Both the position numbers and the translations under genes were made by a program. Shown in pieces: positions 38,901 to 58,941 of a DNA stretch of 64,000 bases; position 1 is the stretch's first letter; every line of letters begins with the position of its first letter. Origin of the DNA: an uncultured Candidatus Binatia bacterium (GTDB taxonomy: Bacteria; Desulfobacterota; Binatia; Bin18); assembly GCA_965200965.1 (NCBI GenBank), contig OZ241744.1:2784001-2848000 (forward strand). Direction: 5' to 3'. The notes below the pieces were generated by a model. The model did no database searches and was not told where the DNA came from. It was given only the letters and a program-made list of their open reading frames with translations.

Positions 38901-41900
38901 GGGGGAACCTCGCAAATGCGCCAGCTCAAAGGGGGAGTCGCGGGTCTATCCCCGCGTGTGCGGGGGAACCGAGCTTACGCGCAAGCTGCACACGGATGTA
39001 ACCGGTCTATCCCCGCGTGTGCGGGGGAACCTGAGCGAAATTAAATCTGACCCGGGCGTGAAAAGGTCTATCCCCGCGTGTGCGGGGGAACCTAGGCGGT
39101 CCGCCGATGTGTGTCGCGTGAAACAGGTCTATCCCCGCGTGTGCGGGGGAACCGCATAACACTCTTTGCTATCAAAGACGTATCCCGGTCTATCCCCGCG
39201 TGTGCGGGGGAACCGCTGGAAGAGCTCTTCTGCTTGCGCCTTCGTGAGGTCTATCCCCGCGTGTGCGGGGGAACCAGGCAGAGGGTCATCCGGCAGTGCA
39301 GGCCTACGGGTCTATCCCCGCGTGTGCGGGGGAACCCCTGGAAGATGCCCTTCGGGTAGACATGAGCCGGGTCTATCCCCGCGTGTGCGGGGGAACCCGT
39401 GCTCTGAGTGCAAAGCCTCCGACTCCCGGGGGTCTATCCCCGCGTGTGCGGGGGAACCCGGGCGATCGATCGGCTCGAGCGCACCGAGTTTGGTCTATCC
39501 CCGCGTGTGCGGGGGAACCGATCATTGGCTTAGCCTTGGTAGGACGCTTAAAGGTCTATCCCCGCGTGTGCGGGGGAACCACGCTGAGCGAGGCGGCGCT
39601 GCGCCTCCTGGCGGGTCTATCCCCGCGTGTGCGGGGGAACCAGATCGATGCGTACCTCCAGGCCGTGGGGCGCGGGTCTATCCCCGCGTGTGCGGGGGAA
39701 CCATCTCGCCTATTCCGCAGAGAAAGGGCTCGAGCGGTCTATCCCCGCGTGTGCGGGGGAACCCGCGGGTACGGCGATCGTGATGCGAGCCGCGACGGTC
39801 TATCCCCGCGTGTGCGGGGGAACCATGACAGGCCGCCATTTGCGTTGCTTCATATTCGGTCTATCCCCGCGTGTGCGGGGGAACCTTTACCGCTGGGTCG
39901 ATACGGAAGCTCTCAAGAGGTCTATCCCCGCGTGTGCGGGGGAACCGAACAAATCCACGCCGCCCATGACGAGGAAGACGGTCTATCCCCGCGTGTGCGG
40001 GGGAACCTTGCCCGCGAGCTCTGCGACCCGGTCTATGCAAGGTCTATCCCCGCGTGTGCGGGGGAACCCGCGTCACTCCCAGCGTGGTGGCGGCGCAGCT
40101 CGGTCTATCCCCGCGTGTGCGGGGGAACCCGCTATGTTGATGTTCAACATTGGCTACGCGCGGGTCTATCCCCGCGTGTGCGGGGGAACCATCAACCAGG
40201 GCGGACAGCGCCAGCAGCTCATGGGTCTATCCCCGCGTGTGCGGGGGAACCCAGTACCAGGATGTCCCTGACTCTATGCGCCGGGGTCTATCCCCGCGTG
40301 TGCGGGGGAACCCCAAGAGGCGATCCGCCGTAACGTCCCAGATGGGTCTATCCCCGCGTGTGCGGGGGAACCTCTTCCAGCATGCACGGCAACGGGCCCG
40401 GGCCGGGTCTATCCCCGCGTGTGCGGGGGAACCACGGGGAGGCGCATGTGCGTTTGGCCTATCTGTGGTCTATCCCCGCGTGTGCGGGGGAACCGATCGG
40501 GCCGTGCTGGCCAAGTCTCGCATCCGGGGTCTATCCCCGCGTGTGCGGGGGAACCGCGCTCTGAGACTCCCCCTCGATATAATCCGGCGGTCTATCCCCG
40601 CGTGTGCGGGGGAACCTTGGGCGGTAGTCATGTTGAAACCCCTTTCAGGGGTCTATCCCCGCGTGTGCGGGGGAACCCAAAAGGGGGCTGTATGTATGAG
40701 TCATTCATGCGGTCTATCCCCGCGTGTGCGGGGGAACCGAATACCTGGCTAGCCTTTTTGGGGCTAGCTGCGGTCTATCCCCGCGTGTGCGGGGGAACCC
40801 GTGAGGCGCTTTCAAGCAATGGGGCTGACAAAGGTCTATCCCCGCGTGTGCGGGGGAACCTCAAGAAGACAGTCGTTCACGGCAAGCTGGTGGGGTCTAT
40901 CCCCGCGTGTGCGGGGGAACCCTTACGCCTGGAACAATACCACGGCGACAACCCGGTCTATCCCCGCGTGTGCGGGGGAACCTTGTTGATCTGCCTCTGA
41001 TGACTGAGCGCAAAAGGTCTATCCCCGCGTGTGCGGGGGAACCCCCGGCGCAGTCACCATGTACGGCACCCGGTACGGTCTATCCCCGCGTGTGCGGGGG
41101 AACCGGCTTCGGGTTGGTGTACAAGTTCCACAACTCAGGTCTATCCCCGCGTGTGCGGGGGAACCAGGATAGCCAGTGACGTACATGCACCACTGGCAGG
41201 TCTATCCCCGCGTGTGCGGGGGAACCCGCGGTTCTTCCCACGGAGCCGATGATCCGAACGGTCTATCCCCGCGTGTGCGGGGGAACCGCGTTGCGCCAAC
41301 GGATCAAGTACTTGATGACGGGTCTATCCCCGCGTGTGCGGGGGAACCCATCGCGATTTTTTGGCGCGTCGCCCTGCTCAGGGTCTATCCCCGCGTGTGC
41401 GGGGGAACCCGCGCCTCGCTCCTGCAGTTTTTTGTCCATGCTGGTCTATCCCCGCGTGTGCGGGGGAACCCCAGAGAGATTTTTTTTAGGGTCTTTAGGA
41501 AGGGGTCTATCCCCGCGTGTGCGGGGGAACCTACTGGCAGTACAATGATCCCCACGACAATCAGGGTCTATCCCCGCGTGTGCGGGGGAACCTTACCAGT
41601 ATTGGCGTCAGGATCGCGAAAGAAAGGTCTATCCCCGCGTGTGCGGGGGAACCAACCGACGGTAGAGGCCCAAATACACACCAGAGGGTCTATCCCCGCG
41701 TGTGCGGGGGAACCCATAGACTGCATAGCAGCGAGGCGAGCTTCATGGGTCTATCCCCGCGTGTGCGGGGGAACCGGATCCGCCAGCTGGGTGAGAAACG
41801 GCAAGATGGGTCTATCCCCGCGTGTGCGGGGGAACCCGCACCGGTCCCCGACCGAACTGGCGGCTGTACGGTCTATCCCCGCGTGTGCGGGGGAACCATA

Positions 41901-44900
41901 CTCCGGAGACTCGGCGTGCCACGGGACTTCGGTCTATCCCCGCGTGTGCGGGGGAACCACTACGCTCGGCTGGCTGCCGCGTCTTGAATACGGTCTATCC
42001 CCGCGTGTGCGGGGGAACCCGATCCGCGGGCCTTTGGTCCCGTGCGCAAATGGGTCTATCCCCGCGTGTGCGGGGGAACCCGCTGCGTCGTCAAGGCGTT
42101 GTCAAACCGCCCAGGTCTATCCCCGCGTGTGCGGGGGAACCACAGGTAGAACGGTTGCTCACTATTCCCCAGAGGGTCTATCCCCGCGTGTGCGGGGGAA
42201 CCCATCGGTGTTAGGCGCTCGGTGCGTCTTCACAAGGTCTATCCCCGCGTGTGCGGGGGAACCGCGTCAGCCGGGATTGTAGCCTCTCCTGCCTCGGGTC
42301 TATCCCCGCGTGTGCGGGGGAACCTCTTTATCTCAGCGGTGGAGCAGCTATCCAAGAGGTCTATCCCCGCGTGTGCGGGGGAACCACAGGCATCGAGGAG
42401 AGCACGGGCCGCATGGACGGTCTATCCCCGCGTGTGCGGGGGAACCACCCAGTTAGCCGACTGACGGAAATATTCCAACGGTCTATCCCCGCGTGTGCGG
42501 GGGAACCAGAATCCCCCGCCCGCTTGGTGGCAGACCCGTAGGTCTATCCCCGCGTGTGCGGGGGAACCACAAGGTCAATCAGAGCCTCAATCAGATATGG
42601 AGGTCTATCCCCGCGTGTGCGGGGGAACCCTGGACCAGCCGGAGGCGTAAATGGCATTCTGGGGTCTATCCCCGCGTGTGCGGGGGAACCACCTTCAGGC
42701 GAGAACCGCCTTGAGCAACCCCAGGTCTATCCCCGCGTGTGCGGGGGAACCATCGAAACAGGAGCCAGTACCCAACCGTTATAGGGTCTATCCCCGCGTG
42801 TGCGGGGGAACCGTTCAGCCCGATTTCGGTACGGTATGGATAGGCGGTCTATCCCCGCGTGTGCGGGGGAACCGAGGATCGCCAGTCGGCTTCCGGGTAT
42901 GGACGCGGTCTATCCCCGCGTGTGCGGGGGAACCCGTCATCTTATCTCCGAGATCGACATAGCCAAAGGTCTATCCCCGCGTGTGCGGGGGAACCTCCAC
43001 TGGCAAGAGCCGGTCGTTCGGCACGAAGGGTCTATCCCCGCGTGTGCGGGGGAACCGCCAACACGCATCGTCGATGACGCTGACGGTACGGTCTATCCCC
43101 GCGTGTGCGGGGGAACCCATGCGAGTATTGCCGGGTAGCGAAGAAGCAAAGGTCTATCCCCGCGTGTGCGGGGGAACCACCCAGTTAGCCGACTGACGGT
43201 AGTACTCCAGCGGTCTATCCCCGCGTGTGCGGGGGAACCGCTGGTAAGCGGGAAACCAAGTATCGCGTGACAGGTCTATCCCCGCGTGTGCGGGGGAACC
43301 CGTCTGATATTTCGGCGACAAAGCGCGGTTGGAGGTCTATCCCCGCGTGTGCGGGGGAACCAATCGAACCGACCTTCATAGCGGAATGTAAAGGGGTCTA
43401 TCCCCGCGTGTGCGGGGGAACCCCCATCCAGTCGATACGACCTTCGAACCGGAAGGGTCTATCCCCGCGTGTGCGGGGGAACCTACGGCAGCCTACCGTA
43501 CAGATAGTTGATCGCGGGTCTATCCCCGCGTGTGCGGGGGAACCGACGGGCTTCCTACTTTCGTGAGACGCTGAATGGGTCTATCCCCGCGTGTGCGGGG
43601 GAACCACTATGGTCCGGCGGCTGGGCGGTGGTGGCGCAGGTCTATCCCCGCGTGTGCGGGGGAACCACTTGCTTGCAAGTCATGCGCAACCGTCGTCACG
43701 GTCTATCCCCGCGTGTGCGGGGGAACCACCGAGACCAAGGCGGAAACGACGATACGCGGGGGTCTATCCCCGCGTGTGCGGGGGAACCCATCGCCCGATA
43801 TCCAGGCCCAGGCTGTGCGTAGGTCTATCCCCGCGTGTGCGGGGGAACCACCACAGACCAATCGAGCCCGGGCAAGAAAATAGGTCTATCCCCGCGTGTG
43901 CGGGGGAACCGCCGCCCAACCTTCTTCGTAGATGTGCCTCAGCGGTCTATCCCCGCGTGTGCGGGGGAACCGCGGAGCGCCCGGGCGCTGGGCCGCGTTG
44001 ATTGGGTCTATCCCCGCGTGTGCGGGGGAACCACTTCCAGAAGACGGGAGAATGGCGCTGGTTTGGGTCTATCCCCGCGTGTGCGGGGGAACCTGCAAGA
44101 CCTGAGCGATCATTGCGCGATGTTGGGGTCTATCCCCGCGTGTGCGGGGGAACCGTCCGACAGTAGATGATGCTCACATGCCGTCTCGGTCTATCCCCGC
44201 GTGTGCGGGGGAACCACTGGCTGACCAATGTCAGATGCACCAGTCTTGGGTCTATCCCCGCGTGTGCGGGGGAACCGTTCAGCCCGATTTCGGCACGGTA
44301 TGGGTCGGGGGTCTATCCCCGCGTGTGCGGGGGAACCACTCGGCCTTCCTGGCTCAATACGGTGTCCAGGGGTCTATCCCCGCGTGTGCGGGGGAACCAC
44401 AATCTGGCTCAACTCGGCTGGCTCTGGCCTCGGTCTATCCCCGCGTGTGCGGGGGAACCGTCAAGCGGGGAGCTCGTATCGTCCCAGTACGGGGTCTATC
44501 CCCGCGTGTGCGGGGGAACCGCTGCCCTGCGTCGTTGGCTGATGCCTTTGCGCGGTCTATCCCCGCGTGTGCGGGGGAACCCCCGTCGGCTTGGGCTGAT
44601 GTGTGGTCCGAGGCGGTCTATCCCCGCGTGTGCGGGGGAACCAGACACCACAGCCAGCCATGTTCCGAGAAGAACGGTCTATCCCCGCGTGTGCGGGGGA
44701 ACCAGACATATATGCCACCCGGCGATTTTCTCGCCAGGTCTATCCCCGCGTGTGCGGGGGAACCGCAGCTGCTCCGCTCCACTGGCATCTGGCCGCGGGT
44801 CTATCCCCGCGTGTGCGGGGGAACCCGAAGGAGAAAATGACCCAGTGGGAATACATAGGGTCTATCCCCGCGTGTGCGGGGGAACCCGATTTAGCCATGC

Positions 44901-47900
44901 TATCGATCCACTTTCGAAAGGTCTATCCCCGCGTGTGCGGGGGAACCGGCCCTATCGCGTCTCATCATCGCCGGTCAGGAGGTCTATCCCCGCGTGTGCG
45001 GGGGAACCGCTCATATCCGGTACTAAAGTACCAGTCCGGAAGGTCTATCCCCGCGTGTGCGGGGGAACCACATGGATCCAGCGCCCAAACTCGGAAATGA
45101 CTGGTCTATCCCCGCGTGTGCGGGGGAACCTAGTGAATCTCACCACGCGATCGGACATGCTGAGGTCTATCCCCGCGTGTGCGGGGGAACCGGCCCTGGA
45201 GCCACCAACCAGGCGCAATCCAAGGGTCTATCCCCGCGTGTGCGGGGGAACCATGCATCTGAGGCATCAGGCATCCTCCCGAAAGGGTCTATCCCCGCGT
45301 GTGCGGGGGAACCTGGCAATGGATGAAGGGGCATGGGTGAAATTTAGGTCTATCCCCGCGTGTGCGGGGGAACCCGATAACGTGGACAACTCCAAGCCTC
45401 CCCAGGCGGTCTATCCCCGCGTGTGCGGGGGAACCACACCTCCTCTCTTAACTCGATCGTCTTGCTCCGGTCTATCCCCGCGTGTGCGGGGGAACCCCGG
45501 CCTTGGTAGAGGTACGCTGCAGGGCCTGAGGTCTATCCCCGCGTGTGCGGGGGAACCTATCCTGGACGAGCTCGGCGAACTAGAGGAGTGGGTCTATCCC
45601 CGCGTGTGCGGGGGAACCTCACTGGATGTAATCGCGCAGGCGGGCATCCAGGGTCTATCCCCGCGTGTGCGGGGGAACCACTGGCTAAGTCCGGCCTGGT
45701 CCCTGAGGTCCAGGTCTATCCCCGCGTGTGCGGGGGAACCGTCCGGCGCTCAACGGTGATCTGACATCCCGCAGGTCTATCCCCGCGTGTGCGGGGGAAC
45801 CGCACCAATGCCCAGGACGGGCCGAACCTGAACAGGTCTATCCCCGCGTGTGCGGGGGAACCCGTGCCCAGAAGATGGCTATTGGAGGTATCAGGGGTCT
45901 ATCCCCGCGTGTGCGGGGGAACCCAGTCAAAAACAGCATCCACCACGACCGACGGAGGTCTATCCCCGCGTGTGCGGGGGAACCGACTTTGGCACGGTCT
46001 GGCTTGGTTGGTCGATGGGTCTATCCCCGCGTGTGCGGGGGAACCACCCAATTAGCGCTTTGCCTGAAATACTCAAGCGGTCTATCCCCGCGTGTGCGGG
46101 GGAACCCTCGTGCGTCCAGTGCTACTGATCGGTGCTGCAGGTCTATCCCCGCGTGTGCGGGGGAACCTCACTGGATGTAATCGCGCAGGCCGCCATCCAG
46201 GGTCTATCCCCGCGTGTGCGGGGGAACCATCTGCTGGATACTGGTGTAGTCTCTGGCACGGGGTCTATCCCCGCGTGTGCGGGGGAACCTGATATGGCCT
46301 TCTCGTTCTGCCACGGAAGGACGGTCTATCCCCGCGTGTGCGGGGGAACCCTTCTTTGTCTCTTGCCACTTGGGATGGGTCCCGGTCTATCCCCGCGTGT
46401 GCGGGGGAACCACTTTCACCAAGGAGGTGGAGAGTATCCGGGGGGGTCTATCCCCGCGTGTGCGGGGGAACCCCGAAACGGGCCGGCGCATAGTAGAACC
46501 AATAAGGTCTATCCCCGCGTGTGCGGGGGAACCCTCGGACCGGAATATCCGGTCCGAATCCTATTGGGTCTATCCCCGCGTGTGCGGGGGAACCCCTGAC
46601 GCCGGCGAGATATTTGCTTGGCTCTCAGGTCTATCCCCGCGTGTGCGGGGGAACCGCCGGTGCCGGTAGAGGTCTACTGTCTGGTCTCGGTCTATCCCCG
46701 CGTGTGCGGGGGAACCATTGCCTGGACTTATGGGCGTATCTACGACAATGGTCTATCCCCGCGTGTGCGGGGGAACCAAGATAGGCCTGGATAGCCACAC
46801 GCATGGGCCGGGTCTATCCCCGCGTGTGCGGGGGAACCATGTCCGAAATGCCTTTAAGGCCCAGTACTGTCGGTCTATCCCCGCGTGTGCGGGGGAACCG
46901 AAAGATAATCGCGCATGACCTTACCACGGCGCGGTCTATCCCCGCGTGTGCGGGGGAACCCAGCGTGACCCCCGGCCGGTCATCCCAGACTGCGGTCTAT
47001 CCCCGCGTGTGCGGGGGAACCGATTACAAGGTGTACCGGAGAGCATCCAGCCGCGGTCTATCCCCGCGTGTGCGGGGGAACCAAATCTTACGCGATCACG
47101 GGTAAGGCCCGATGCGGTCTATCCCCGCGTGTGCGGGGGAACCGAGGACGGACTATGAAGAAGAAGCTCAAACCCAGGTCTATCCCCGCGTGTGCGGGGG
47201 AACCAACGATGCGACACCGACTGTGAGAAGGGTATCAGGTCTATCCCCGCGTGTGCGGGGGAACCGGGACGCGACCCCGAACTGAAAGAGTTCACAGGGG
47301 TCTATCCCCGCGTGTGCGGGGGAACCTTCCACTACGGACAAACTCACCTTATCGGGATGGGTCTATCCCCGCGTGTGCGGGGGAACCGGGGCTATGTTCT
47401 TCGTGCTGAATCGTTGCAGCGGTCTATCCCCGCGTGTGCGGGGGAACCATAAGCTCTGCGTTTACATCAGTCTCGACCGGGGGTCTATCCCCGCGTGTGC
47501 GGGGGAACCGTGGCGACCGAGAACTGACACATATCCCGGCCGGGTCTATCCCCGCGTGTGCGGGGGAACCACAGCTATCGGAAAGATGGATAAACCCAAA
47601 GCGGGTCTATCCCCGCGTGTGCGGGGGAACCGATGACCCTCATGCATCACCTTCAATCTCAAGAGGTCTATCCCCGCGTGTGCGGGGGAACCAGACATAG
47701 CCATCTTCCTGATTTCTTCCTTCTGGGTCTATCCCCGCGTGTGCGGGGGAACCCAGCCCAACCTCCGCCAGCGGGATTTCCTGGCCGGTCTATCCCCGCG
47801 TGTGCGGGGGAACCGCTGACGAACTCTATTCCCTGGCGGCGCTCAGCGGTCTATCCCCGCGTGTGCGGGGGAACCGAGCTTTCGCCGCGTCCACGAACAG

Positions 47901-49583
47901 CCTGTAGAGGTCTATCCCCGCGTGTGCGGGGGAACCGCCTATTGATCGCTCCCTTCCCTGACCTCTGCCGGTCTATCCCCGCGTGTGCGGGGGAACCGCC
48001 GTGGCGGTGGCCTCGGAGCCGTGAAGAGCGGGTCTATCCCCGCGTGTGCGGGGGAACCTATCAGAACATCCCCGCCGTAGTAGTCAGCCACGGTCTATCC
48101 CCGCGTGTGCGGGGGAACCGCCGCCAAGGACGCCAAGCTCACGGGCAAGTCAGGTCTATCCCCGCGTGTGCGGGGGAACCCACTATTCGGACGGATACCA
48201 GGCAGATACGGCAGGTCTATCCCCGCGTGTGCGGGGGAACCTGGAACATCAACGACCACACCGAGCTGGAAGTGGGTCTATCCCCGCGTGTGCGGGGGAA
48301 CCCCCAACATCCGCTTTCATCCAACTCTTCCTACCGGTCTATCCCCGCGTGTGCGGGGGAACCAGCGCCTCAAACCGGGCGTTCATCAACGCAAACGGTC
48401 TATCCCCGCGTGTGCGGGGGAACCCCGCTGCCCGGTTAGGATACTGCATGAGGACCAGGTCTATCCCCGCGTGTGCGGGGGAACCTCTCTGAGATTTCAC
48501 AGATCACAACCCCAAGCGGGTCTATCCCCGCGTGTGCGGGGGAACCGCCGTGAGCCGGGGATAGTCTCTCAATCCAGGAGGTCTATCCCCGCGTGTGCGG
48601 GGGAACCGCGGCGTCATCGCGCTCCTCGTCGAGTCGGCACGGTCTATCCCCGCGTGTGCGGGGGAACCCTGCTGAAGTCAAATATGACGTCCGTATTCAA
48701 CGGTCTATCCCCGCGTGTGCGGGGGAACCCTGGGGATGGCTCATGCTGTTGCCCCTTGCTTCGGTCTATCCCCGCGTGTGCGGGGGAACCTAACCAACCG
48801 CCCCTTCGGGGGCAATCCCAAGAGGTCTATCCCCGCGTGTGCGGGGGAACCATGACGTACCGAGCAAGCGCGAAGGCTATGGAGGGTCTATCCCCGCGTG
48901 TGCGGGGGAACCAGAAACCATCGGCCTAGGCGGGGTTTTGGCAGAGGTCTATCCCCGCGTGTGCGGGGGAACCATGCTGAAGATCATGCACGAAAAGCTC
49001 ACTGAGGGTCTATCCCCGCGTGTGCGGGGGAACCCCGCCAGCCCTCGCGCCATCGGGGTAGCCGTCAGGTCTATCCCCGCGTGTGCGGGGGAACCTATTC
49101 CTGGCCCGAAAATCCCGACGGGGTGAAGGGTCTATCCCCGCGTGTGCGGGGGAACCGTCTACAGCGAGGTCCATGATCTCGCCGTCAGCGGTCTATCCCC
49201 GCGTGTGCGGGGGAACCAGCTTCGCCATCGTGTCCTCCTCAATCTCAAGAGGTCTATCCCCGCGTGTGCGGGGGAACCGTCACATCAGCATAAGTCAGGG
49301 TCAAAAAGTAGGGTCTATCCCCGCGTGTGCGGGGGAACCACGCTAATGTGGTCCGGCGTGGGCATTGCGTCGGGTCTATCCCCGCGTGTGCGGGGGAACC
49401 AGTACCGTTGTCAGCCATTAGGGAGCCTCCGAAGGTCTATCCCCGCGTGTGCGGGGGAACCTGGACGACGCCGAGGATAGCGAAACCAATAGGGGGTCTA
49501 TCCCCGCGTGTGCGGGGGAACCTCCCACAAAGGACGGTATGAGACGCCCAAGAAGGGTCTATCCCCGCGTGTGCGGGGGAACC
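35954..49583 (-). CRISPR. Type I-E CRISPR array, ~224 repeats / ~223 spacers
   Basis: 28-bp repeat GGTTCCCCCGCACACGCGGGGATAGACC (minus strand), period ~61 bp. Count estimated as span/61. Orientation inferred from the leader next to cas2 and the ATAGACC handle. Confidence 0.99.
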
Positions 49584-49661
49584 TCTCCTGATTTTATTAC
49601 ACTTTTGGCGCACTGCGTCCAGCGTCGGGTGTGGGAAGACGCGATTCGGATTGTCAAAGAG
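49584..49661 (-). promoter_or_regulatory. CRISPR leader
   Basis: Between the cas2 stop and the first repeat; contains CTTTGACAAT and an AT-rich TGTAATAAAAT just before the repeat. Confidence 0.75.
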
Positions 49662-49973
49662 CTAGGTATCCTGACCCGGACCCGGGCCGGTTCGCCTGGA
49701 GAGAATGACACCCTCCTGATCTACCAGCTCGACGGGGGGCGTGCCAAGGACGCGCACGGACTGCCCGCTTGGCTGGCGCGAGTCCTGCCAGGTCATGACA
49801 ATGGACCGCCCCCCAAGCCCGAGGAACCAGTCTGAGATCACTGCCCATATGCGGTCCCGGACACGCGCGGAGAGTCGTGGGGCGGTGTAGACCCCCGGCG
49901 CAATCTCCAGCATGCACGAGGCCAGAAACCCGCGGATGCGCGGGGCAACATCACGGGTGACTATGACTGTCAT
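49662..49973 (-). CDS. cas2: Type I-E Cas2
   Basis: MTVIVTRDVAPRIRGFLAS.MLEIAPGVY...RDRIW; lies after cas1. Confidence 0.93.
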   Translation of the reverse strand: MTVIVTRDVAPRIRGFLASCMLEIAPGVYTAPRLSARVRDRIWAVISDWFLGLGGRSIVMTWQDSRQPSGQSVRVLGTPPVELVDQEGVILSRRTGPGPGQDT

Positions 49974-50832
49974 CGTCGTCAATCAACTGGATGATCCGGT
50001 CAATCATCTTTGTGATGAGTTTTGTCTGTCTGAAGCGCCGACCGGCCAGCCGTCGGACATGCCGTTCAAGCGGGATATGTCCGTTTGCGGAGTAGTGGCT
50101 GACCGCTTCAAAGGCGACCGGGATGGTGACTTCGGTCCTATACAGGTCTGCAATGTCGAGACAAAAGGCAATGGAAGCGTCCTCGTGGACAAAGCCGAGC
50201 GGGGGCAGGGTTCCAGTGGCGGCGACGGCCACAAGGGCCGCGGCTTCGGTGGCCGTCGCCGCGTGGTTGATGGCTTGATTGGGGTCGTCGGCTATGTCGG
50301 GGCGCTGCCTGTCGTAGCGGCGTCCGTACCAGTCAATGCCGTAGCGCTCGGCCAGCAGGCGGTAGGATTCTTTCATCCGGGCTCCTTCGATCCCGCGCAT
50401 GATGGCGATGTCCTGTTCGGGCAGGACTTCGCCCAGCCGCCAAGCGTACATCCGGCGGGCGGTCCGCAGCCGTGACCGTCGGTCGTTCCAGAGTTTCGCC
50501 TGACGGCGTGCTCGTCGTGAGTCGTTCGGCCCAAAGGGCTGGGCACTGTACATGCGCACGCCGTCTTCCCCAACGGCAACAAGGCCGGTCCCGTGTCGGG
50601 CCAGCAGCCGGAAAACGTCGTGGCTGACGGTTGAGCCAGGCCCGAGCAGAATGAATGAGATATTCTGAAAGGGGATGGCATAATCGCCGGCCTGCATATC
50701 CGCAGACCCGGCGGTGCGAAACCGCAAGGTCCCATCCTCTACGGTGAGATTTCCCCGCGCCAGCCACAACAGGCCGTGGCGGTCGGCGTGGGGGATCCGC
50801 GCCTCCTCCAGTCCTAATCTGCCTTTCAGCAC
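49951..50832 (-). CDS. cas1: Type I-E Cas1
   Basis: LLGPGSTVSH, RGIEGARM, DPNQAIN, LGFVH and DIADLYR motifs. Confidence 0.96.
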   Translation of the reverse strand: MLKGRLGLEEARIPHADRHGLLWLARGNLTVEDGTLRFRTAGSADMQAGDYAIPFQNISFILLGPGSTVSHDVFRLLARHGTGLVAVGEDGVRMYSAQPFGPNDSRRARRQAKLWNDRRSRLRTARRMYAWRLGEVLPEQDIAIMRGIEGARMKESYRLLAERYGIDWYGRRYDRQRPDIADDPNQAINHAATATEAAALVAVAATGTLPPLGFVHEDASIAFCLDIADLYRTEVTIPVAFEAVSHYSANGHIPLERHVRRLAGRRFRQTKLITKMIDRIIQLIDDDDSHSHP

Positions 50833-50834
50833 TG

Positions 50835-50862
50835 GGTCTATCCCTGCGTGTGCAGGGGAACC
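50835..50862 (-). repeat. Solitary CRISPR repeat variant at the cas6/cas1 junction
   Basis: GGTTCCCCTGCACACGCAGGGATAGACC, 26/28 identical to the array repeat; the two changes pair with each other. Confidence 0.93.
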
Positions 50863-51596
50863 GCCTTGGCGGCCGCGGGACGCAAGAGCAGCATTCCATA
50901 GCCGTAGGCGCGGTGCCGGCCAATGCCCCGGGCCAGCAGTTCGGCGAAGGTCCCGGCATTAGTAATGGTGAGGGTGCCCCGCATGAGCGCGTCCGGCCCC
51001 TCGCTAGAACGGGCGTGTCGCTTGCGAATAGCGCGGCTGCGCTGAAAGGATTGCAGGCCTGCCTTGCCTTCCAACTTTGCCCCGCCATGCCGCCCGAACT
51101 GCTTGGCCAGCCAGTCGCTATAGACCTCTTCACGGCTGCGCTTCATTTTCCTGTCCGGGTCCTCCTTCGGGTGCTGAAGGGCTTCCCATAAGAAAGCGTC
51201 GCACTCCGTATCTGCGCAATCGCCTGCACCACGGGGACGGCGGATAATGGGACGCACCCGCGTCTCAAAGCCGAGGCGCTTGCCGGTCTGCCAGGCTGCC
51301 GGCATGGGCTTGCTGTCGAGGCTGGCGGCAGGAATTACCCTGGCTTGGAGCGGGCAGGCATGGATGTCAGCCTCGGCGCGCAGGGCTTCGGCGTCAGCCT
51401 GCCCATAGCCGTACAGAACGCCGCGGGGCTGAGCGCGGCCGATCATCAGCCGAAAGGGCTTGGGGGCCAGTTCGCCGAACATTTCGGTCAGCAGGCAGTG
51501 CATGGCGTGGTCGCTGTCCTGCAAGCGCCTGGAGCCGGCCCAGCGCTGGAGGTTTTGCGCGTCTATGTCGGCGCGTATCATGTGGAGTGAGGCCAT
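50838..51596 (-). CDS. cas6e: Type I-E Cas6e (Cse3/CasE)
   Basis: C-terminal LARGIGRHRAYGYGMLLL Gly-rich loop; start MASLHMIR after an AGGAG RBS. Confidence 0.95.
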   Translation of the reverse strand: MASLHMIRADIDAQNLQRWAGSRRLQDSDHAMHCLLTEMFGELAPKPFRLMIGRAQPRGVLYGYGQADAEALRAEADIHACPLQARVIPAASLDSKPMPAAWQTGKRLGFETRVRPIIRRPRGAGDCADTECDAFLWEALQHPKEDPDRKMKRSREEVYSDWLAKQFGRHGGAKLEGKAGLQSFQRSRAIRKRHARSSEGPDALMRGTLTITNAGTFAELLARGIGRHRAYGYGMLLLRPAAAKAVPLHTQG

Positions 51597-51598
51597 AG

Positions 51599-52321
51599 TC
51601 AGGACTCCTTCCTGAAAGATGAATCGTTGCCTTCGCACACCAGCCGCCCGCCGCCGTGCAGGCCGGATAGCCAGTTGCGTTGGTCGGTAAGCGGATAGCT
51701 CCGGCTGGGGGCAATCGTTTCGATACCTTCGCCGTCGGGCCACAGCAGTTGTCGGGGGGTCGGCTCATCTGGTTCGGGGGCGCACAGGGCGGCCAGGGCG
51801 GTAGCGCCGTCGCGGCACTCGGCAAACAGCGGCGCTGAGGGCAGACACGGTTTGCGCCCGATGAACAGCGGACGCGCCGGCTCTTGCAGCGCCTCGGCTA
51901 GGTCGTCCAGGGTTGGCGCGTCGTCTGGCGGTTCCAGGCGCACGGCGAGGCTGACGCGCATATCGGCGAAGTAGTCGCGGTAGCGCAGATGGGGCGCGTC
52001 ATAGGTCTTCTGGCCGCCGGTCCGACCCTCGGGCTGTCCGCGCGTGGTCCAGGCCGTATCTTTGTCCCCGAGTTGCGCGGTCTGAAAGTCGGTCAGATGC
52101 GCATCGCCGGCCGGCTCCCGGTCAATGCGGGCGGCGAAAATTAGCCGGTCTTGCAAGTGCTGATGCTGCTCTCGCTGGGTGCGTCGCCAGCCCAGGGCAT
52201 TCGCGAACAGGCCGGTCAGCATGGACGCCGCGGGAAACTGGCGGATGACTCCATAATTGTCAATTGTCTCACCGCCAAAGGCCATAAGCGGGCTTTCCAG
52301 GTTCAGGATCAGATGCCGCAT
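51599..52321 (-). CDS. cas5e: Type I-E Cas5 (CasD)
   Basis: LNLESPLMAFG...P..S.LTGL.ANALG, R.RDY.AD and PLFIGRKPCLPS motifs. Confidence 0.95.
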   Translation of the reverse strand: MRHLILNLESPLMAFGGETIDNYGVIRQFPAASMLTGLFANALGWRRTQREQHQHLQDRLIFAARIDREPAGDAHLTDFQTAQLGDKDTAWTTRGQPEGRTGGQKTYDAPHLRYRDYFADMRVSLAVRLEPPDDAPTLDDLAEALQEPARPLFIGRKPCLPSAPLFAECRDGATALAALCAPEPDEPTPRQLLWPDGEGIETIAPSRSYPLTDQRNWLSGLHGGGRLVCEGNDSSFRKES

Positions 52322-52323
52322 GA

Positions 52324-53544
52324 CTAACTCACCTCACCGTTGCGAACCGCGGCCGCGGCCCAGCTCGCCAGGTCGTCCAGGCACACGCGCTCGGCGTTGG
52401 GCAGATCGCAGTCTCCAACAGACATGATCCGCCGGCGCTCACGCACCCCATAGGCCGTATCGAGTTTGCCCAGATGTGTAGACAGGGCATCCGTTGCCGC
52501 GGCCACTTGGGGCTGAACTGGGTCGCGGAAGGCGTTAGCCAGGCTGCGCGGCTGGCGCACTCCGGCCTCAACCAGCATCAGGTCGGCGCAGCTATAGGGG
52601 GCGGTTGAGCCCAACTTTGCCCCGGGCGAGACAGTAGCAATGAGATGAAGCAGATGCTCAATCACCTTGCCGGCCAAGGTCGTATCCGCGTTCTTCCAAT
52701 CGCTGGCCGGGCAGCCCTCCAGGTTGGAAACCAAGCCTGGAACGTCCACCACCGCATAGCCGTAGAACAGCCCCGCGGTCAGTTCTACATCGCCGATGTG
52801 AGCCGCGCCGGCATCTTCGTCTTTTCGTTGAAGGTCGTCCACCACCGAGAAGTAATCGCTTTCGCTCTCTTCCTGATGCACGGTAAAGGCATGAGCGACA
52901 TGAACGGCGGCGTCAATGTTCGCGCCGGGGTCAGATGTCACCATGCGACCAAACAGCGCGCCTTCCAGCCCGCCGGGCAGGCGTGCCTGTTCCCGGAAAG
53001 CGCGAAAGTTGTTGCCTTCACCAAGTGATTTCTGTTTGAAAAGGTCGTCGGCAGCCGTCTTCGCAGCCTTGGCATCAGTGGGATGCTCAATACAGATCAC
53101 CCTAGCCTTCTCCTGAAGGTATTCAACTTCGGGAAGGCCGAGCAGAAGGGTCTGCCGATTTTTTCTGTCTTCCGCCTCCTTTGCGCCTTTCTCGTCTTTC
53201 TTGTCGCCCTTATACACGCCGTTGTTGAAAGCCTTCTTGACCGCATTGAGCACATCCTCTGCGACTTCGCCGGCCTCGCATAAGGGTTGTAAGGGCGGGA
53301 TTACCTTTTGCTCGACAACATTCCGGGAGCGTATCGCTTCCGCCGCGCCAGAAATGTTGCGGAGGGAGAACTCATCTTCCGCTACCCGCCAGTGTCGCTT
53401 GAGACACTGCGACGATATGCGGGTCCGTACCGCGCCGCCAAAAGGCATCCGCTTGGCGAGGCCGCTGTCATCCCGGTTCAGCAGGGCCGCCGGGTAGGAA
53501 TGCAGGGTATGAATCTGGAAAAAACGTGCTGTGGTCATGGTCAA
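52324..53544 (-). CDS. cas7e: Type I-E Cas7 (Cse4/CasC)
   Basis: IHTLHSYP..LNRDDSG.AK, RISSQCLKR, ALFGRM and VAHAFTVH..E.DYF..VDD motifs. Confidence 0.96.
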   Translation of the reverse strand: MTMTTARFFQIHTLHSYPAALLNRDDSGLAKRMPFGGAVRTRISSQCLKRHWRVAEDEFSLRNISGAAEAIRSRNVVEQKVIPPLQPLCEAGEVAEDVLNAVKKAFNNGVYKGDKKDEKGAKEAEDRKNRQTLLLGLPEVEYLQEKARVICIEHPTDAKAAKTAADDLFKQKSLGEGNNFRAFREQARLPGGLEGALFGRMVTSDPGANIDAAVHVAHAFTVHQEESESDYFSVVDDLQRKDEDAGAAHIGDVELTAGLFYGYAVVDVPGLVSNLEGCPASDWKNADTTLAGKVIEHLLHLIATVSPGAKLGSTAPYSCADLMLVEAGVRQPRSLANAFRDPVQPQVAAATDALSTHLGKLDTAYGVRERRRIMSVGDCDLPNAERVCLDDLASWAAAAVRNGEVS

Positions 53545-53565: not shown

Positions 53566-54162
53566 TTAGTCTGTTGATTGCGGGGCATTGCGCCGCTCGG
53601 CCTGATAGTAGGTGCGGGCGATACCGCGGCGTGCTGCTTCGGCCTGTTTTTCGTTATAGCCATCGTTCAGGATGAAGAATGTCATTTCACGCCAGTTGAA
53701 GGGTTGGTTGGCAGCGGCCAACATGCGGAACAGCCGTGCCAGCAGAACACGCAGCATCGGCCCTCGTGCCGTCAGCAGTCGGTTCAGGCGTGTCTCGCTG
53801 TAGAAAGCGGCTGTCCGCCGGGCGTCACCGCCGAAGAACAACGCTCGGCCAACAGGCATCGATCCGTCGTGGGCGGAGCGTCGGTCAGCCGTGCCGGTCA
53901 TCAGCGCGATGCCGTGCAGGATGAGCGCCCATTTGCGTTCGAGGGTGGGGTTGCCCAACAGTTCCCGGTATGCCAGGAGCCGCCAGAAGGCCGCTGCATC
54001 GGGGGCGTCCGGGTCCATGCGCCGCAATTCGGCTAGATCGCCCCGGCGAAAATCGGGCTGTGATAGAACATGGGCAAAACCCGCCGCAATAGCGTCCCAA
54101 GTCTGCTGTTCGCCTTCCAGCGTCGGCGTAGCGGACGCTGGAAGAGGTTGCCTATGTGTCAT
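53566..54162 (-). CDS. cse2: Type I-E Cas11 (Cse2/CasB)
   Basis: GDLAELRR, SETRLNRLL and IARTYY motifs; operon position. Confidence 0.88.
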   Translation of the reverse strand: MTHRQPLPASATPTLEGEQQTWDAIAAGFAHVLSQPDFRRGDLAELRRMDPDAPDAAAFWRLLAYRELLGNPTLERKWALILHGIALMTGTADRRSAHDGSMPVGRALFFGGDARRTAAFYSETRLNRLLTARGPMLRVLLARLFRMLAAANQPFNWREMTFFILNDGYNEKQAEAARRGIARTYYQAERRNAPQSTD

Positions 54163-55763
54163 TCCTGGTCCTCCTTATTCGCTTCGTCAAACAGAAACGG
54201 CAGTCCTTTCGGTCTACGGAGCCGCCCCTCAAACAGCCCCTCGGCCTTGACCCGGGCGCGGTAGCGGTGAATGGCCGGGCAGGGCAGGGTGGCGGTTGCG
54301 TCTTGCAGGATGCGGCGGGCGTGGTCAATCACGCCGTCTTTGCGGTTCATCAGCCACGCCTTTCGGATGCGCTTGCGTTTGTCGTCGTTGTCGGCCTCAA
54401 ACTCGGTTTGCAGGTCGTCAAAGAATCGGGCGTCAACGATTGCGTCCAGCCTGTCCGACCAGGGATTTGCCAGCGTGCGGTGCTCCGAGCTGGTCTTGTC
54501 ACCCTCACCGCGGGCGGCAAACGTTGCGATAGCGCGGCGCACGATGCTCTTCACAGTGCCAATCTGCTCAATACGCTCTTGGGCGAGGTCGCCCAATTCC
54601 TGAGCCTGTGCACTGTTGCGGCGCAGCATAGCTGTTCTGGCCTTGCTCCTGATGGGGATGATGCGTTCGTGATAGCCTTCGGTCATACCCTGCTTTCTGG
54701 TGTTGCATTTTAGACTTCGGGCGACGAGTTGCATCGTTTCCGGGGAATGCTGTTCAGACGGTGTTGGCTTCAGCAGGACCGGGTGTTCCCAGTCGGCCGA
54801 GATCAGGTATTTCTTCACCAGATCATAGGTAAAACCCTTTGGGCCGATATTGAGAGCTTCGCCCTTTGTCGTGTTGATGGGGGTCCACGGGTCGCCTGTA
54901 CGCCCTTTGATCTTCTCTGCCTCAATTCGTGTCGCGTCCGAGTTTGCCTTGAGGCCGCTGAGCTTGCCGTCCGTCCCGAGGCGCAGGCGGACACGCCGGC
55001 AGACCTCGATGTAGTAGGGGGCGAGTTCGACCAGCGGCAGTTTCTCCGCCTTGGTCCCATCCCAGGGGATGGTCCAGAGTAGGCCGATATCGCCATTGGT
55101 CAGAGAGAGATCATCCATCCGTTCCAGTAGGGCTATGATATCCCGCCGGGCGTGCGCACCCGGTCGTAGGGAGGGTGTGAGGCTGAACGCTGGGCGTCCA
55201 GAATAAGCGCTCTTGAGCCTAGAAACAGAGTAATTGCCACGACCGTTCTGAGCCGAGGTAGTTTGCAGGGTAATCAGCGCAAACAACCAAGCGTCTACGC
55301 TTGCCTCGGTCGCCACCTCCGATTTGAGGTCGTGGTTCTTGGACGTGACCAGCATATCCAACTTGTCTGGAGTTGGGAGAATGTTCTTTTTGTCCTCCTC
55401 GGCTCTCTCGTAGGTATCGGCCTTGTCTGCGGAGGCCGGCGGCTGCATGAAGGCCGGTTCTGTGATGTCATTCACCACTACCTGCCAGGGTTCGTCGTCT
55501 GGATAGTCCGGCGTCAGTCCACGGATCAGGGCCACCCACTCTGCCGCGTTCTCCGGTGGTTCACCGCGGCCGGCCCGGCGCAGTGCCATCACCCCGAGCT
55601 GGACGAGAAAGGCGTGCCAGGCGTGACGCTGGTGGGGGCGCAGTGCGGGAAAAGTGTTTACCTCGTCCTGCATCAGCGCAGCGAAGATCTCCGGCAAGGA
55701 GACCTCCACGCCCGCGCCTGCCGTATCCATCCGAATCAATGGTTCCGTGAGAATGTTGAGCAT
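54159..55763 (-). CDS. cas8e: Type I-E Cas8e (Cse1/CasA)
   Basis: NILTEPLI, LRPHQRHAWHAFLVQL, YIEVCRRVRL and TGDPWTP motifs; first Cascade gene. Confidence 0.9.
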   Translation of the reverse strand: MLNILTEPLIRMDTAGAGVEVSLPEIFAALMQDEVNTFPALRPHQRHAWHAFLVQLGVMALRRAGRGEPPENAAEWVALIRGLTPDYPDDEPWQVVVNDITEPAFMQPPASADKADTYERAEEDKKNILPTPDKLDMLVTSKNHDLKSEVATEASVDAWLFALITLQTTSAQNGRGNYSVSRLKSAYSGRPAFSLTPSLRPGAHARRDIIALLERMDDLSLTNGDIGLLWTIPWDGTKAEKLPLVELAPYYIEVCRRVRLRLGTDGKLSGLKANSDATRIEAEKIKGRTGDPWTPINTTKGEALNIGPKGFTYDLVKKYLISADWEHPVLLKPTPSEQHSPETMQLVARSLKCNTRKQGMTEGYHERIIPIRSKARTAMLRRNSAQAQELGDLAQERIEQIGTVKSIVRRAIATFAARGEGDKTSSEHRTLANPWSDRLDAIVDARFFDDLQTEFEADNDDKRKRIRKAWLMNRKDGVIDHARRILQDATATLPCPAIHRYRARVKAEGLFEGRLRRPKGLPFLFDEANKEDQE

Positions 55764-55945: not shown

Positions 55946-55973
55946 TTTTTCTCCTTTCTTTTAGACATAGACA

Positions 55974-56001
55974 TTGAAACACAAAAATTAGATGTTAGAC
56001 T
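55974..56001 (+). promoter_or_regulatory. Divergent promoter for the mini-array RNA
   Basis: TTGAAA, 16 bp spacer, TAGACT with an extended -10 TG at 55993-55994; ~18 bp upstream of pseudo-repeat 1. Confidence 0.5.
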
Positions 56002-56018: not shown

Positions 56019-56101
56019 GATTCCCCGCACGGGGATAGACCGTTTTGTGTTGCGATGTCAAACATCGTGCTCAAATTTCCCCGCACACGCGGGGTTGTCC
56101 T
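56019..56101 (+). ncRNA. crRNA-like regulatory mini-array (CreR/CreA-like)
   Basis: GATTCCCCGCACGGGGATAGACC, 32-nt spacer, AATTTCCCCGCACACGCGGGGTTGTCCT. The spacer matches 55986-55968. Confidence 0.85.
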
Positions 56102-56127: not shown

Positions 56128-58941
56128 TTACATCCGACGCAGTCCCAGACGGTCGTATTGGAATCGGGCGTCACCGAGGCGGAAGGTGAAGCCGCCGGCG
56201 GTCAGCTCGGGCGCGACCGGCTCGTCGCTGGCCAAGTCACGCGCCAGATGGTTGGGAATGGCTATCTGGGAGATCGTTTCGCCGGTGAAAGGGCTGGACG
56301 GGGCCGGCTCTAACTCAACCGCTATGCCCTCATCGCCCAGCCGCGTGCGTATCTTCTCTTCCAGAGAGCCAAAAACCACGTCCTGGTTGTCCGTGAAAAA
56401 GGACTTATCGCGCCGGACGATGGCGCTCCGGGCGGTCAAGCCCTCGGCCAATTCCGCCCCCATCATGCTGTTGGCGTGATCCCGCCAAGCGTCGCCCAGC
56501 TCTGTGGTAATGGCTTCCAACGCCTCGGGGTGGGTCGTTCGTTCGACCAGCTCCCGGTTCATCTCCGGGATGCGCCACGGTCTGGCGTTCTCGGTATGCT
56601 CTACGATCAGCCGTCGCGTAGCCTCCAGGATGCGCAGGTCCTTATACACATGACCGTGCGGCCCCAAGCCGTTTCGGCCCGGCCCTTGAGGAGTGAACGT
56701 GTCATCAGATTGACCGGAAGGCGACACATTGACTCCTTTTGCCAGCAGGGGCGAGAGATCGGCACCCGCCGGCAGCAGCACGACGCAACTCGGCGTCTCA
56801 TAGCCGGGCGGGCGATCGTGCCGTTGGTGTCGGTGCAGGCGGCCAATTCGTTGAAGCAGTACGTCCATCGGGCACAGGTCGGTTATGAGCAGGTCGGCAT
56901 CAATATCGAGGGACTGCTCCAGGGTCTGGGTCCCCACAATAATGCGCCCGCCGGCCGGCCGGTCTTTGCCGAGTTGCTCTTCAACCGCTCTGTCGAGGTG
57001 GCGGCGGTCACTGGCGGCGAACCGGCCGTGGTGGAGGGTGGGAGTGCCGTTGCAGGCGTACAGCAGGCCGCGTTCGTCAGACAGGGCCGTTTTTTCCAGG
57101 GTCTGCTGGGTGTTGATCGCGTGGCCGACTGTGTTGCGAATGACCAGCACCTTCGCCCCGGTGCGGGCCGCGTGCAGGGCGCGTTCGGCCACCTGAGCGA
57201 AGTCATCCATAGCCGTGGCCTCAATCTGTACCGTTTTTTCTTTGCCAAAGATGAACCGTGTCGCCGTCCTCTCGTTCGGGTAAGACGATTTATCTTCATT
57301 GTGAGCGACGGCGATCATCTGTTCACCACCGCCGGCCTGGGTTGTGACCGCGGGGTAGGGGGCGGTGATGGTTTCACCGAGTGGCGGAAGGTCCTGCAAA
57401 CCGGATACCCAGCGACGACGTGCCACCGCACCTAGCGTGGCCGACATCAGCACCGCGTAGCCGCCGGCCCCGATATGGGCGTCAAGCAGAGCTTTGAGAA
57501 TGGCCCGCATATACGGGTCGGAGGCGTGGACTTCATCCACGACCAGCAGGTGACGCGCCAGGCAGGCGGCGCGCAGATGGGCGTGTTTCACCTTGAGGGC
57601 TGCCATCATGGCCTGGTCTACCGTGCCCACGGCAATTTGCGCTGCCAAGTAGCGCTTGGCGCTTTCGGCGGCCCAGCGGCGTTTTCCGGTGGCGACACCG
57701 GGATCATCGTCCCACCAGACCTCGTAGTTCGGCAACTGCCGACCCTCGGCGGTGCCGGCGCGCAGATAGCCGGGGACGGCTAACACCGGCTCCGGTCGGT
57801 GTTTGTTAGGGAACAGATTGGCAATGAAGCGCGTGACGCGCGCGTGCATCTGGCTGGCCGCGGCCCTGGTCGGCAGGGCAAAATACAGCCCGTCCACCAG
57901 TTCGGCCTGATACAGTTGGGCAAAGCGCCACAGGGCGGCCTCGGTTTTCCCAGAACCGGTTTCGGACTCGATGATGACCAGCCGCTCATCCGTCGGGACC
58001 GCCCTTACCACCTGCTGGACAGGGTTGGGCGTGGCATTGGGAAGGCTGAACAGCGGGCCGAAGTCGGGGAGAGCCGGCAAGGAGTGCGCGTGTCGCCTTC
58101 CGGTCGATCTGATGACATGTTCACTCCTCAGGGTGCGAAAAGCGGTCCGCTGACTTTTCAGGTTCAGCCCGATTTCCGAAACCGCCCGCTGGGCGTTTTG
58201 GCGCGCTGTGCTGATGTAGTTGTCGCGCGGCTCGGCGCAAAACGGAAAATTGCGCTCATCGGAGCCGATCCAGTCGGCCAGTATGCACAGGCCCAGAAAC
58301 ATATGCTGGAAGGCGGACGTGGACGGCAGGGGCGGCGCATCGGGACTGAAGGCCAACGGGAACCAGTGGCGCACGAGCTGGCTGATGCGCTCCACATGAC
58401 TTTTGGGGTGCAACTTGCCAAAGTCACGCCATACTTTGGGGTTGGGGTGTCGCACGCCTAGTTGCAGGGGCGAGCCGTGATGCGACAGCGCAGCGATGAA
58501 CAACCCGCACACGGTCTCGCCCTCGCCGGCGTCCCAACTCAGCAAATCATCCCACCAGCCCAGGGCGTCAAAGAACCAAGCGGATGTTGTCGCATCAGTG
58601 CCATTCAGGACCGGCGTCAGGTCGGCGATGTGACCGGCGCGATGTGGCATTTTCTTGTCCGCTGGCGCGTCCGCGGGCTGCCAGATCTGCGTCTGAAAGC
58701 CGATGTTGACCTTACCGATGTCGTGGAGGGCGGCAAAGACGGCCAGCCGCGCCGCGGTTGCGTCGTCCAGCCTGTCCAGCCCGCCGGCCCGCGCCAGGCC
58801 TTGCCCGATGGTCGGCTGCTCCAGCAGGGCCTTAAAGCAGACCCCCACATCGGCCATGTGGTGCTCTAACAGATGGATACGCTGTGGGTTTTCTCGGTCC
58901 GATTTTGCCCAGAAGGCCCGGGTGTAGGCTGTGGCTGTCAT
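56128..58941 (-). CDS. cas3: Cas3 HD nuclease-helicase
   Basis: WAKS, H..DV, LHDIGK, LADWIGS, SETGSGKTEAA, VDEVH, MSAT, EQSLDID.D and QRIGRLHRH motifs. Confidence 0.97.
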   Translation of the reverse strand: MTATAYTRAFWAKSDRENPQRIHLLEHHMADVGVCFKALLEQPTIGQGLARAGGLDRLDDATAARLAVFAALHDIGKVNIGFQTQIWQPADAPADKKMPHRAGHIADLTPVLNGTDATTSAWFFDALGWWDDLLSWDAGEGETVCGLFIAALSHHGSPLQLGVRHPNPKVWRDFGKLHPKSHVERISQLVRHWFPLAFSPDAPPLPSTSAFQHMFLGLCILADWIGSDERNFPFCAEPRDNYISTARQNAQRAVSEIGLNLKSQRTAFRTLRSEHVIRSTGRRHAHSLPALPDFGPLFSLPNATPNPVQQVVRAVPTDERLVIIESETGSGKTEAALWRFAQLYQAELVDGLYFALPTRAAASQMHARVTRFIANLFPNKHRPEPVLAVPGYLRAGTAEGRQLPNYEVWWDDDPGVATGKRRWAAESAKRYLAAQIAVGTVDQAMMAALKVKHAHLRAACLARHLLVVDEVHASDPYMRAILKALLDAHIGAGGYAVLMSATLGAVARRRWVSGLQDLPPLGETITAPYPAVTTQAGGGEQMIAVAHNEDKSSYPNERTATRFIFGKEKTVQIEATAMDDFAQVAERALHAARTGAKVLVIRNTVGHAINTQQTLEKTALSDERGLLYACNGTPTLHHGRFAASDRRHLDRAVEEQLGKDRPAGGRIIVGTQTLEQSLDIDADLLITDLCPMDVLLQRIGRLHRHQRHDRPPGYETPSCVVLLPAGADLSPLLAKGVNVSPSGQSDDTFTPQGPGRNGLGPHGHVYKDLRILEATRRLIVEHTENARPWRIPEMNRELVERTTHPEALEAITTELGDAWRDHANSMMGAELAEGLTARSAIVRRDKSFFTDNQDVVFGSLEEKIRTRLGDEGIAVELEPAPSSPFTGETISQIAIPNHLARDLASDEPVAPELTAGGFTFRLGDARFQYDRLGLRRM
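56687..58130. repeat. 52-bp hairpin element, two inverted copies inside cas3 (56687-56738 and 58079-58130)
   Basis: TGAGGAGTGAACRTGTCATCAGATYGACCGGAAGGCGACAC-N4-ACTCCTT, 46/52 identical. Confidence 0.88.

Follow-up and report, generated by a model that had tools for sequence, protein, structure and literature searches.

CRISPR repeats that stand outside an ordinary array have been described in several settings. Solitary repeat units (SRUs) are near-identical single copies of a repeat that lie outside the array and have no partner; in the accessible text of the survey that describes them, only repeats not overlapping open reading frames (ORFs) were mapped, and those of type I-E were enriched around cas3 (Shmakov et al., 2023, 10.1101/2023.03.03.530964). 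CreR, CreA and the crlRNAs are likewise repeat-derived, belong to type I cas operons and could feed back on cas expression and sense the crRNA load; as far as the accessible parts of the reports go, they are guide RNAs that act on transcription and have a PAM-flanked target in a promoter (10.1101/2023.03.10.532045; 10.1101/2024.12.27.630466). Racr RNA anti-CRISPRs also hold a solitary repeat that could engage Cas6 and Cas7 and, in the available portion of their description, are phage-encoded small RNAs that work in trans (PMC10651486). Lastly, engineered Cas6f/Csy4 cuts a hairpin within a longer RNA at its 3' base and stays bound, according to the accessible sections of that article (PMC13478208). 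The Cas6e of type I-E systems cuts at the 3' base of the repeat hairpin, leaves a 7–8-nt 5' handle with a 5'-OH and remains on the hairpin, as stated in the available parts of two papers (PMC5965381, PMC5965380).

Here, we describe a solitary repeat at the junction of cas6 and cas1 in a type I-E operon whose closest relatives carry the label Candidatus Binatia. The stretch of DNA that was analyzed (64,000 nt, hereafter the window) is contained in sponge metagenome runs, and the listing of runs that contain it showed no RNA run. Like an SRU, the junction repeat is a near-identical single copy, outside the array and partnerless. Unlike the repeats of the SRU survey, it is not intergenic but overlaps coding sequence as well as a stop codon and a translation start; it is a variant of an SRU, not a plain member. 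In contrast to CreR and CreA, it lacks a target and a second repeat, and any action would be confined to the mRNA that carries it, in cis. It is not a Racr, being chromosomal and part of the cas mRNA, in a genome assembled as one 3.62-Mb contig. Whereas the Cas6f/Csy4 case is synthetic and concerns another Cas6 subfamily, the junction repeat is natural and sits in Cas6's own message, and its cutting is putative. Natural Cas6 cleavage of its own operon mRNA through such a repeat was not found in the accessible portions of the open-access literature.

A CRISPR repeat spans the cas6-cas1 junction

A complete type I-E system lies on the minus strand of the window, in the order cas3, cas8e, cas11, cas7, cas5, cas6e, cas1, cas2, leader and array:

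56128–58941, minus strand: cas3 (PF18019, TIGR01587)
54159–55763, minus strand: cas8e/cse1 (TIGR02547 E 6.9e-13, below the curated cut-off; operon position)
53566–54162, minus strand: cas11/cse2 (PF09485)
52324–53544, minus strand: cas7e (PF09344)
51599–52321, minus strand: cas5e (PF09704)
50838–51593, minus strand: cas6e, 252 aa when started at the ATG of database protein P0001 (PF08798, TIGR01907)
49951–50832, minus strand: cas1e, GTG start (TIGR03638 above cut-off)
49662–49973, minus strand: cas2e, ATG at 49973, in-frame TTG at 49982 (PF09707, TIGR01873)
49584–49661, minus strand: array leader, from position and A-rich composition
35954–49583, minus strand: type I-E CRISPR array, 224 identical repeats and 223 spacers

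His33 of Cas6 is shared by 118 of 122 aligned homologues (the remaining four have gaps there) and, by analogy with the invariant His of E. coli Cas6e, would be the catalytic residue; the Gly-rich loop is intact, and a search of solved structures returned one weak Cse3 match (E 0.066). Neither a promoter nor a terminator was predicted inside the minus-strand interval 49500–52400. A tmRNA gene is present in the genome.

Four of the 223 array spacers match the chromosome perfectly elsewhere (222899, 3130262, 1890517 and 2069142), none of them with an AAN PAM in register. Three of the four begin with A, a base that follows only 6 of 225 repeats, and have AA at or across their start, as in slipped acquisitions. 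This pattern is consistent with active interference purging correct self-spacers. Elsewhere in the window we noted a 15-nt tandem repeat (10830–10904) and a 35-nt dispersed repeat family with inverted ends (25812–25846, 26131–26165 and 28173–28207).

The junction itself comprises the following features:

50835–50862, minus strand: solitary 28-nt CRISPR repeat, stem arms 50857–50852 and 50847–50842
50841–50845, minus strand: weak SD-like site for cas1 (AGGGA, repeat positions 18–22), 8 nt before the GTG
50841–50842, minus strand: predicted Cas6e cut, between repeat positions 21 and 22, from I-E processing rules
50838–50840, minus strand: cas6 stop codon TAG, repeat positions 23–25

Twenty-five of the 28 nt lie inside the cas6 ORF, stop included, the last seven cas6e codons are wholly repeat-encoded, and the cas1 GTG (50832–50830) begins 2 nt past the 3' end of the repeat. 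An earlier note on this DNA had placed the element at 50830–50862; the repeat proper accounts for 50835–50862 of that interval, and the remainder is the 2-nt link and the cas1 GTG. Compared with the 224 array repeats, the first of which is 1,279 nt away, the junction repeat is identical at 26 of 28 positions. Its only two differences, C9U (50854) and G18A (50845), fall on partners in the 6-bp stem, so the earlier claim that they swap a C-G stem pair for U-A is borne out. Crossing the junction is also a 266-codon open frame (50333–51133, minus strand), out of frame with both cas6 and cas1 and without a Pfam match.

The match to the repeat is not chance: its anchored alignment score was 50, against a control maximum of 26 over 2,125 positions. 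Outside the array it is the sole copy in the genome at fewer than 8 mismatches; five other sites, including the second repeat in the CreR-type mini-array described below, are reached at up to 8 mismatches. Between 49583 and 56074, no second repeat was found with up to 8 mismatches, an interval that covers the distances of 55–65 nt and 15–60 nt from the junction repeat. No array leader lies upstream of the repeat. Origin from another array type was rejected, the variant having no second copy in the genome, and for a spacer-derived origin, no array spacer had at least 5 bases in common with either flank of the junction repeat.

The best available SD-like site of cas1 lies in a predicted hairpin

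We folded the junction repeat alone and in its mRNA context. The hairpin has a predicted energy of –13.9 kcal/mol (array repeat, –15.4 kcal/mol; z –4.0 alone), and its six stem pairs form at a probability of 0.97–1.0 in context; folding of the wider junction is no better than that of shuffles (z –1.1). The repeat supplies the best available SD-like site for cas1. As the earlier note had it, AGGGA stands 8 nt from the GTG; the 3' stem arm takes in four of the five bases; the SD bases are paired, with a probability of being unpaired of about 0. Its predicted duplex with this genome's anti-SD (–4.7 kcal/mol) is weaker than that of the array allele (–5.7 kcal/mol) and those of 12 of 14 close relatives (–5.2 to –10.3 kcal/mol). 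Only 5 nt separate the cas6 TAG from the cas1 GTG. The cas1 GUG is itself predicted to be paired in a second hairpin, which begins at the handle and consists of cas1 coding sequence; pairing of the start codon is common in relatives that lack the repeat.

The features expected of a Cas6e substrate are present in the junction repeat, namely a 4-nt loop, C-G pairs at the stem base, a G before the cut and a 7–8-nt handle. The related TtCas6A reads the lower three C-G pairs (PMC3902920), and these pairs, G21 and the handle are all intact here. The literature search for stem-mutant data gave nothing usable. At the predicted site, a cut would leave an upstream piece that ends two bases into the last cas6 sense codon. 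Since the cut precedes the TAG, this piece would be a nonstop mRNA, and tagging of Cas6 would be expected because the genome has a tmRNA gene. The downstream piece would begin with the 5' handle and have 9 nt up to the GUG, no SD pairing and two paired start-codon bases. The earlier note had correctly drawn a handle-first fragment without an SD; it had overlooked both the loss of the cas6 stop and the CreR-type autoregulator of the locus.

The repeat is confined to one lineage among the loci gathered

We gathered 122 I-E loci (at most the best-scoring 30 per search), which reduced to 100 distinct loci; for 85 of these, the locus's own array could be seen. One of the 100, the locus described here, has an intact repeat at the start of cas1. 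Its local score was 48; the next was 24, and no other locus with its own array attained 24. The 14 closest loci (Cas1 87–93% identical) lack the junction repeat altogether and have 12–67-nt spacers or gene overlap at this place. A 22-nt pattern with 1 mismatch, searched in 401 genomes of the phylum, hit this locus and, by chance, a large unrelated ORF (L028). Among the best 120 Cas6 clusters, a repeat-read tail was found in two, P0001 and P0002, both near-identical to this protein, and two other members of the P0001 cluster share it; this protein test detects only in-frame repeats. Because it is absent from close loci and from other Cas6 clusters, the junction repeat appears to be young and lineage-specific. 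That relatives lack it speaks to its age and not to whether it functions. With one of 100 loci carrying it, and with one compensatory and one stem-breaking change inside the lineage, the junction repeat does not behave as a conserved cis-regulatory RNA, which would be kept across loci with repeated covariation. The earlier note had suggested surveying cas6-cas1 junctions in related I-E loci and had named absence or random decay in homologous loci as one half of what would count against its proposal, the other half being biochemical. Absence is what the closest loci show.

Might other loci hold older, decayed copies? Seven to nine exact bases of the locus's own repeat 3' part were found before cas1 in 3 of 84 other loci (L148, L006 and L009; null mean 0.84, and 0 of 300 permutations reached 3). 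L006 and L009 are kin, and in both the candidate relic falls in the last 10 nt before cas1. In L148, from a distant lineage, 17 of 28 positions match ungapped directly before the ATG, with an anchored score of 23 that is below the control maximum of 26 (2,125 positions). These three are possible older repeat relics serving as a cas1 SD, and are suggestive only.

A metagenome scan for the handle plus a Cas1-start pattern gave at least 118 loci (146 – 28), and none of those listed encodes Cas1 or Cas6 by tblastn; the scan was uninformative. A module swap at the junction was considered and is unsupported, since the Cas6 tree and the Cas1 tree (the latter built in quick mode) both place L002 nearest. 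Reshuffling of modules (Cascade/cas3 versus cas1-cas2) is seen among other loci: L003, L009 and L012 have Cas1 at 88–89% and Cascade at 36–55% identity, and L023 is also reshuffled (Cas6 58%, Cas1 59%). L001, L002 and L004 have in common a different spacer, 45–60 nt before cas1, with short inverted ends followed by a strong SD; in L004, 15 nt of this spacer look like the repeat's 5' half (p 0.025 against shuffles, in one of 36 tests). The 5' part of cas2 (~49930–49955), at the codons for VAPRIRG, also resembles the repeat in its DNA (local score 20–24 in the clade), and the repeat reads VPPHTRG in one frame; this resemblance is probably a coincidence.

Alleles of the junction repeat

Contigs of runs X4 and X6 (study P1, which may be the source study) and X7 and X9 (study P3) span the junction and carry U9/A18 in each case. 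A single contig of run X11 (study P4, depth 66) also spans it, and runs X12 and X13 gave no junction-spanning contig. The U9/A18 allele is thus found in four of the five runs with a spanning contig (two studies), and in all four database proteins with a repeat-read tail. Three alleles can be compared: C9-G18 in the array, U9-A18 in this strain, and U9, U10 and G18 in X11. The X11 allele folds to –8.6 kcal/mol with canonical pair probabilities of at most 0.1 and does not fit the Cas6e substrate pattern; an alternative 5-pair stem still covers its G run.

The X11 contig has 18 differences over 799 nt. Of the 41 X11 places, 40 were listed, with 2 of 28 nt differing in the repeat, 31 of 649 in the cas6 body and 4 of 533 in cas1, and on these counts we see no sign that the repeat is under extra constraint. 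The A-to-G places of X11, all five listed, do not include 50854. Cas6 also has a swapped variable segment: 82 nt of its gene (51099–51180) give way to 91 other bases in X9, X11 and protein P0002. A CpG or methylation hotspot was rejected as the source of both transitions: CpG accounts for 9 of the 28 transitions in X11 and for 33% of C/G sites. CCGC/GCGG is not depleted in the genome (ratio 1.03), which has three DNA-methylase-family genes (four matches).

Two random changes would be compensatory with a probability of only 0.6–1.0%. All three changes of the two junction alleles are in the stem (P 0.07–0.10, not significant alone); neither allele has a change at any of the 16 non-stem positions. 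Set against the conserved stem of natural I-E repeats, the junction repeat departs at its changed pair: C9-G18 is present in 56 of 56 parsed distinct I-E repeats, and three unparsed repeats likewise have C9 and G18. The neighboring pair 10-17 covaries (36 GC, 20 AU) in the same 56. Among array repeats in close loci, 9 of 656 vary, none at position 9 or 18. The invariance of C9-G18 may reflect the anchor motifs that Cas1-Cas2 needs in repeat DNA, as set out in the accessible part of one study (PMC5039180), as much as Cas6e.

The earlier note had read the compensatory pair as a mark of selection on the hairpin. This does not hold up: the repeat is found at a single locus, the stem is broken in X11, the altered pair is invariant in natural repeats, and template switching can make compensatory pairs or repair stems without selection, according to the available text of PMC8794818.

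A CreR-type mini-array as an internal control

A second repeat-derived element lies antisense to the operon, between cas3 and cas8e:

56019–56101, plus strand: CreR-type mini-array (first repeat 56019–56042; spacer from 56043; second repeat 56074–56101)
55970–55989, minus strand: predicted CreR target with an AAT PAM, ~220 nt upstream of cas8e

Fourteen of the 15 scored positions of its spacer match the predicted target. L002 and L008 have counterparts with different, self-matching spacers, and these too retain C9-G18; the copy in the window was found by similarity, those in L002 and L008 by position. No CreR-type element was found by the handle motif in 12 other loci examined. The mini-array is an ordinary element of a known kind, and we took its repeat as a control for how a retained Cas6 substrate ages. 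The second repeat has eight differences, none in the 12 stem positions (P 0.004). The CreR-type repeat therefore keeps its stem while its flanks drift, and the junction repeat does the reverse.

Discussion

Function and selection are separate questions for the junction repeat. On function, the comparative evidence from sequence is mixed to negative. We favor, at roughly 60%, the reading that it is a recent ectopic copy of an array repeat which was co-opted as the cas6 stop and the cas1 ribosome site and is now eroding in its stem, not kept as a Cas6 switch. Its likely donor would be the nearby array (~1.3 kb), and gene conversion or template switching from it is a plausible copying route; the repeat ends and the relatives' native junctions have only short microhomologies. 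With the copy, Cas6 gains the repeat-encoded tail, and the element occupies the place of the 12–67-nt spacer or gene overlap of close relatives. In the accessible text of Shmakov et al. (2023, bioRxiv 10.1101/2023.03.03.530964), many or most solitary repeats are traced to spurious duplication. Translation of cas1 is probably coupled to that of cas6, given an SD sequestered by the repeat stem, a GUG within a second predicted hairpin and a TAG just 5 nt ahead of the GTG: ribosomes halting at the cas6 TAG would melt the hairpin and restart.

The alleles suggest how such erosion may have proceeded. By parsimony, U9 would have come first, as it is common to both junction alleles, followed by A18 in one line and U10 in the other. 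A18 would have restored the pair, by template switching or mild selection, and U10 would have broken the stem. None of the three stem changes touches the stop or the SD-distal handle. This would be expected if the stop and the ribosome site were retained and if the repeat's recognition (by Cas6e or by Cas1-Cas2) or its recombination with array copies were lost or disfavored by selection. The two mismatches leave three uninterrupted matches to the first array repeat (8, 8 and 10 nt), and identity this broken would lower deletion of the cas1-cas2-leader segment between the direct repeats. Several observations sit uneasily with erosion. A compensatory pair is a rare outcome of two random changes, the prevalent U9/A18 allele keeps the lower three C-G pairs, G21 and the handle, and the stem-breaking allele is known from one contig of one run. 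The invariance of C9-G18, moreover, may stem from what Cas1-Cas2 needs in DNA and not from Cas6e.

The same rarity of a compensatory pair argues for a selected feedback switch, an extension of the proposal in the earlier note, in which free Cas6e would bind the repeat within the mRNA of its own operon and cut there. Lacking the cas6 stop, the upstream piece would be handled by tmRNA as a nonstop mRNA and yield less Cas6; the downstream piece, with a 9-nt leader, no SD and a paired GUG, would leave cas1-cas2 silenced. Abundant pre-crRNA would titrate Cas6e off and so release adaptation, and the U-A pair would tune the affinity below that of the array. The hairpin predicted to form in context, the placement of the cut before the TAG, the His33 and Gly-rich loop of Cas6, the tmRNA gene and the recurrence of one allele in two studies all fit such a switch, as does the cleavage of solitary repeats inside I-C operons by Cas5c, reported in the accessible part of 10.1101/2024.12.27.630466. 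However, the repeat is private to one lineage, its stem is broken in X11, the changed pair is invariant in natural repeats, and a paired start codon is nothing special among relatives. Ribosomes would often melt a hairpin that lies in translated codons, and the locus already has CreR-type transcriptional feedback. We regard a selected switch as possible but unlikely. Whether free Cas6e may still cut some transcripts in this strain, as a side effect and not as an evolved circuit, is an evenly balanced matter.

A bolder form of this idea, which we judge unlikely, is that the junction is a natural Cas6e-operated mRNA switch seen soon after it arose. One Cas6e cut would produce a nonstop Cas6 message and sever cas1-cas2 from its ribosome site, which would tie spacer uptake to the balance of Cas6e and pre-crRNA. 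Repeats would land recurrently at the starts of adaptation genes, where the 3' arm offers a ready-made SD, and would afterwards either be adjusted at stem pairs that are invariant elsewhere or wear down to an SD alone, with L148, L006 and L009 as candidate relics.

The hairpin might also work without Cas6. In this lineage, the stem would be retained only to hide the cas1 SD so that synthesis of Cas1-Cas2 requires ribosomes finishing cas6, and the U-A pair would preserve the structure and let it escape Cas6e. Such a coupling hairpin would account for the compensatory change and for its place at an invariant pair; the paired SD, the 5-nt distance from TAG to GTG and the alternative X11 stem over the G run point the same way. 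Relatives do without it, however, and the wider junction folds no better than shuffles, which leaves this reading distinctly improbable.

It is highly improbable that the repeat, with the cas1 5' end as a spacer, forms a crRNA-like guide that sends Cascade to a promoter. The 5' handle is intact with a hairpin predicted directly after it, and I-C solitary repeats with a downstream non-repeat hairpin yield crlRNAs in the accessible text of 10.1101/2024.12.27.630466. However, no genomic target rose above chance: AAN-PAM seeds to position 9 gave three matches (median of array spacers, five), none reached position 11, and the best of the matches agreed at 12 of 27 positions. A second repeat is lacking, and in the same test the true CreR scored 14 of 15 beside cas8e. 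Lastly, an assembly or consensus artefact of the 224-copy array only 1.3 kb off is largely refuted, and its chances are negligible, since independent contigs from three studies span the junction with alleles not found in the array.

Returning to the favored reading of an eroding ectopic copy, even as a scar the junction repeat is a natural experiment: its three alleles offer a direct test of how Cas6e reads the fourth stem pair and of what follows when a cut site lands in cas6's own message. It also exposes a blind spot, as the published survey omitted ORF-overlapping repeats. If functional, the repeat would provide post-transcriptional self-control aimed at adaptation, above the CreR transcriptional loop of the same locus.
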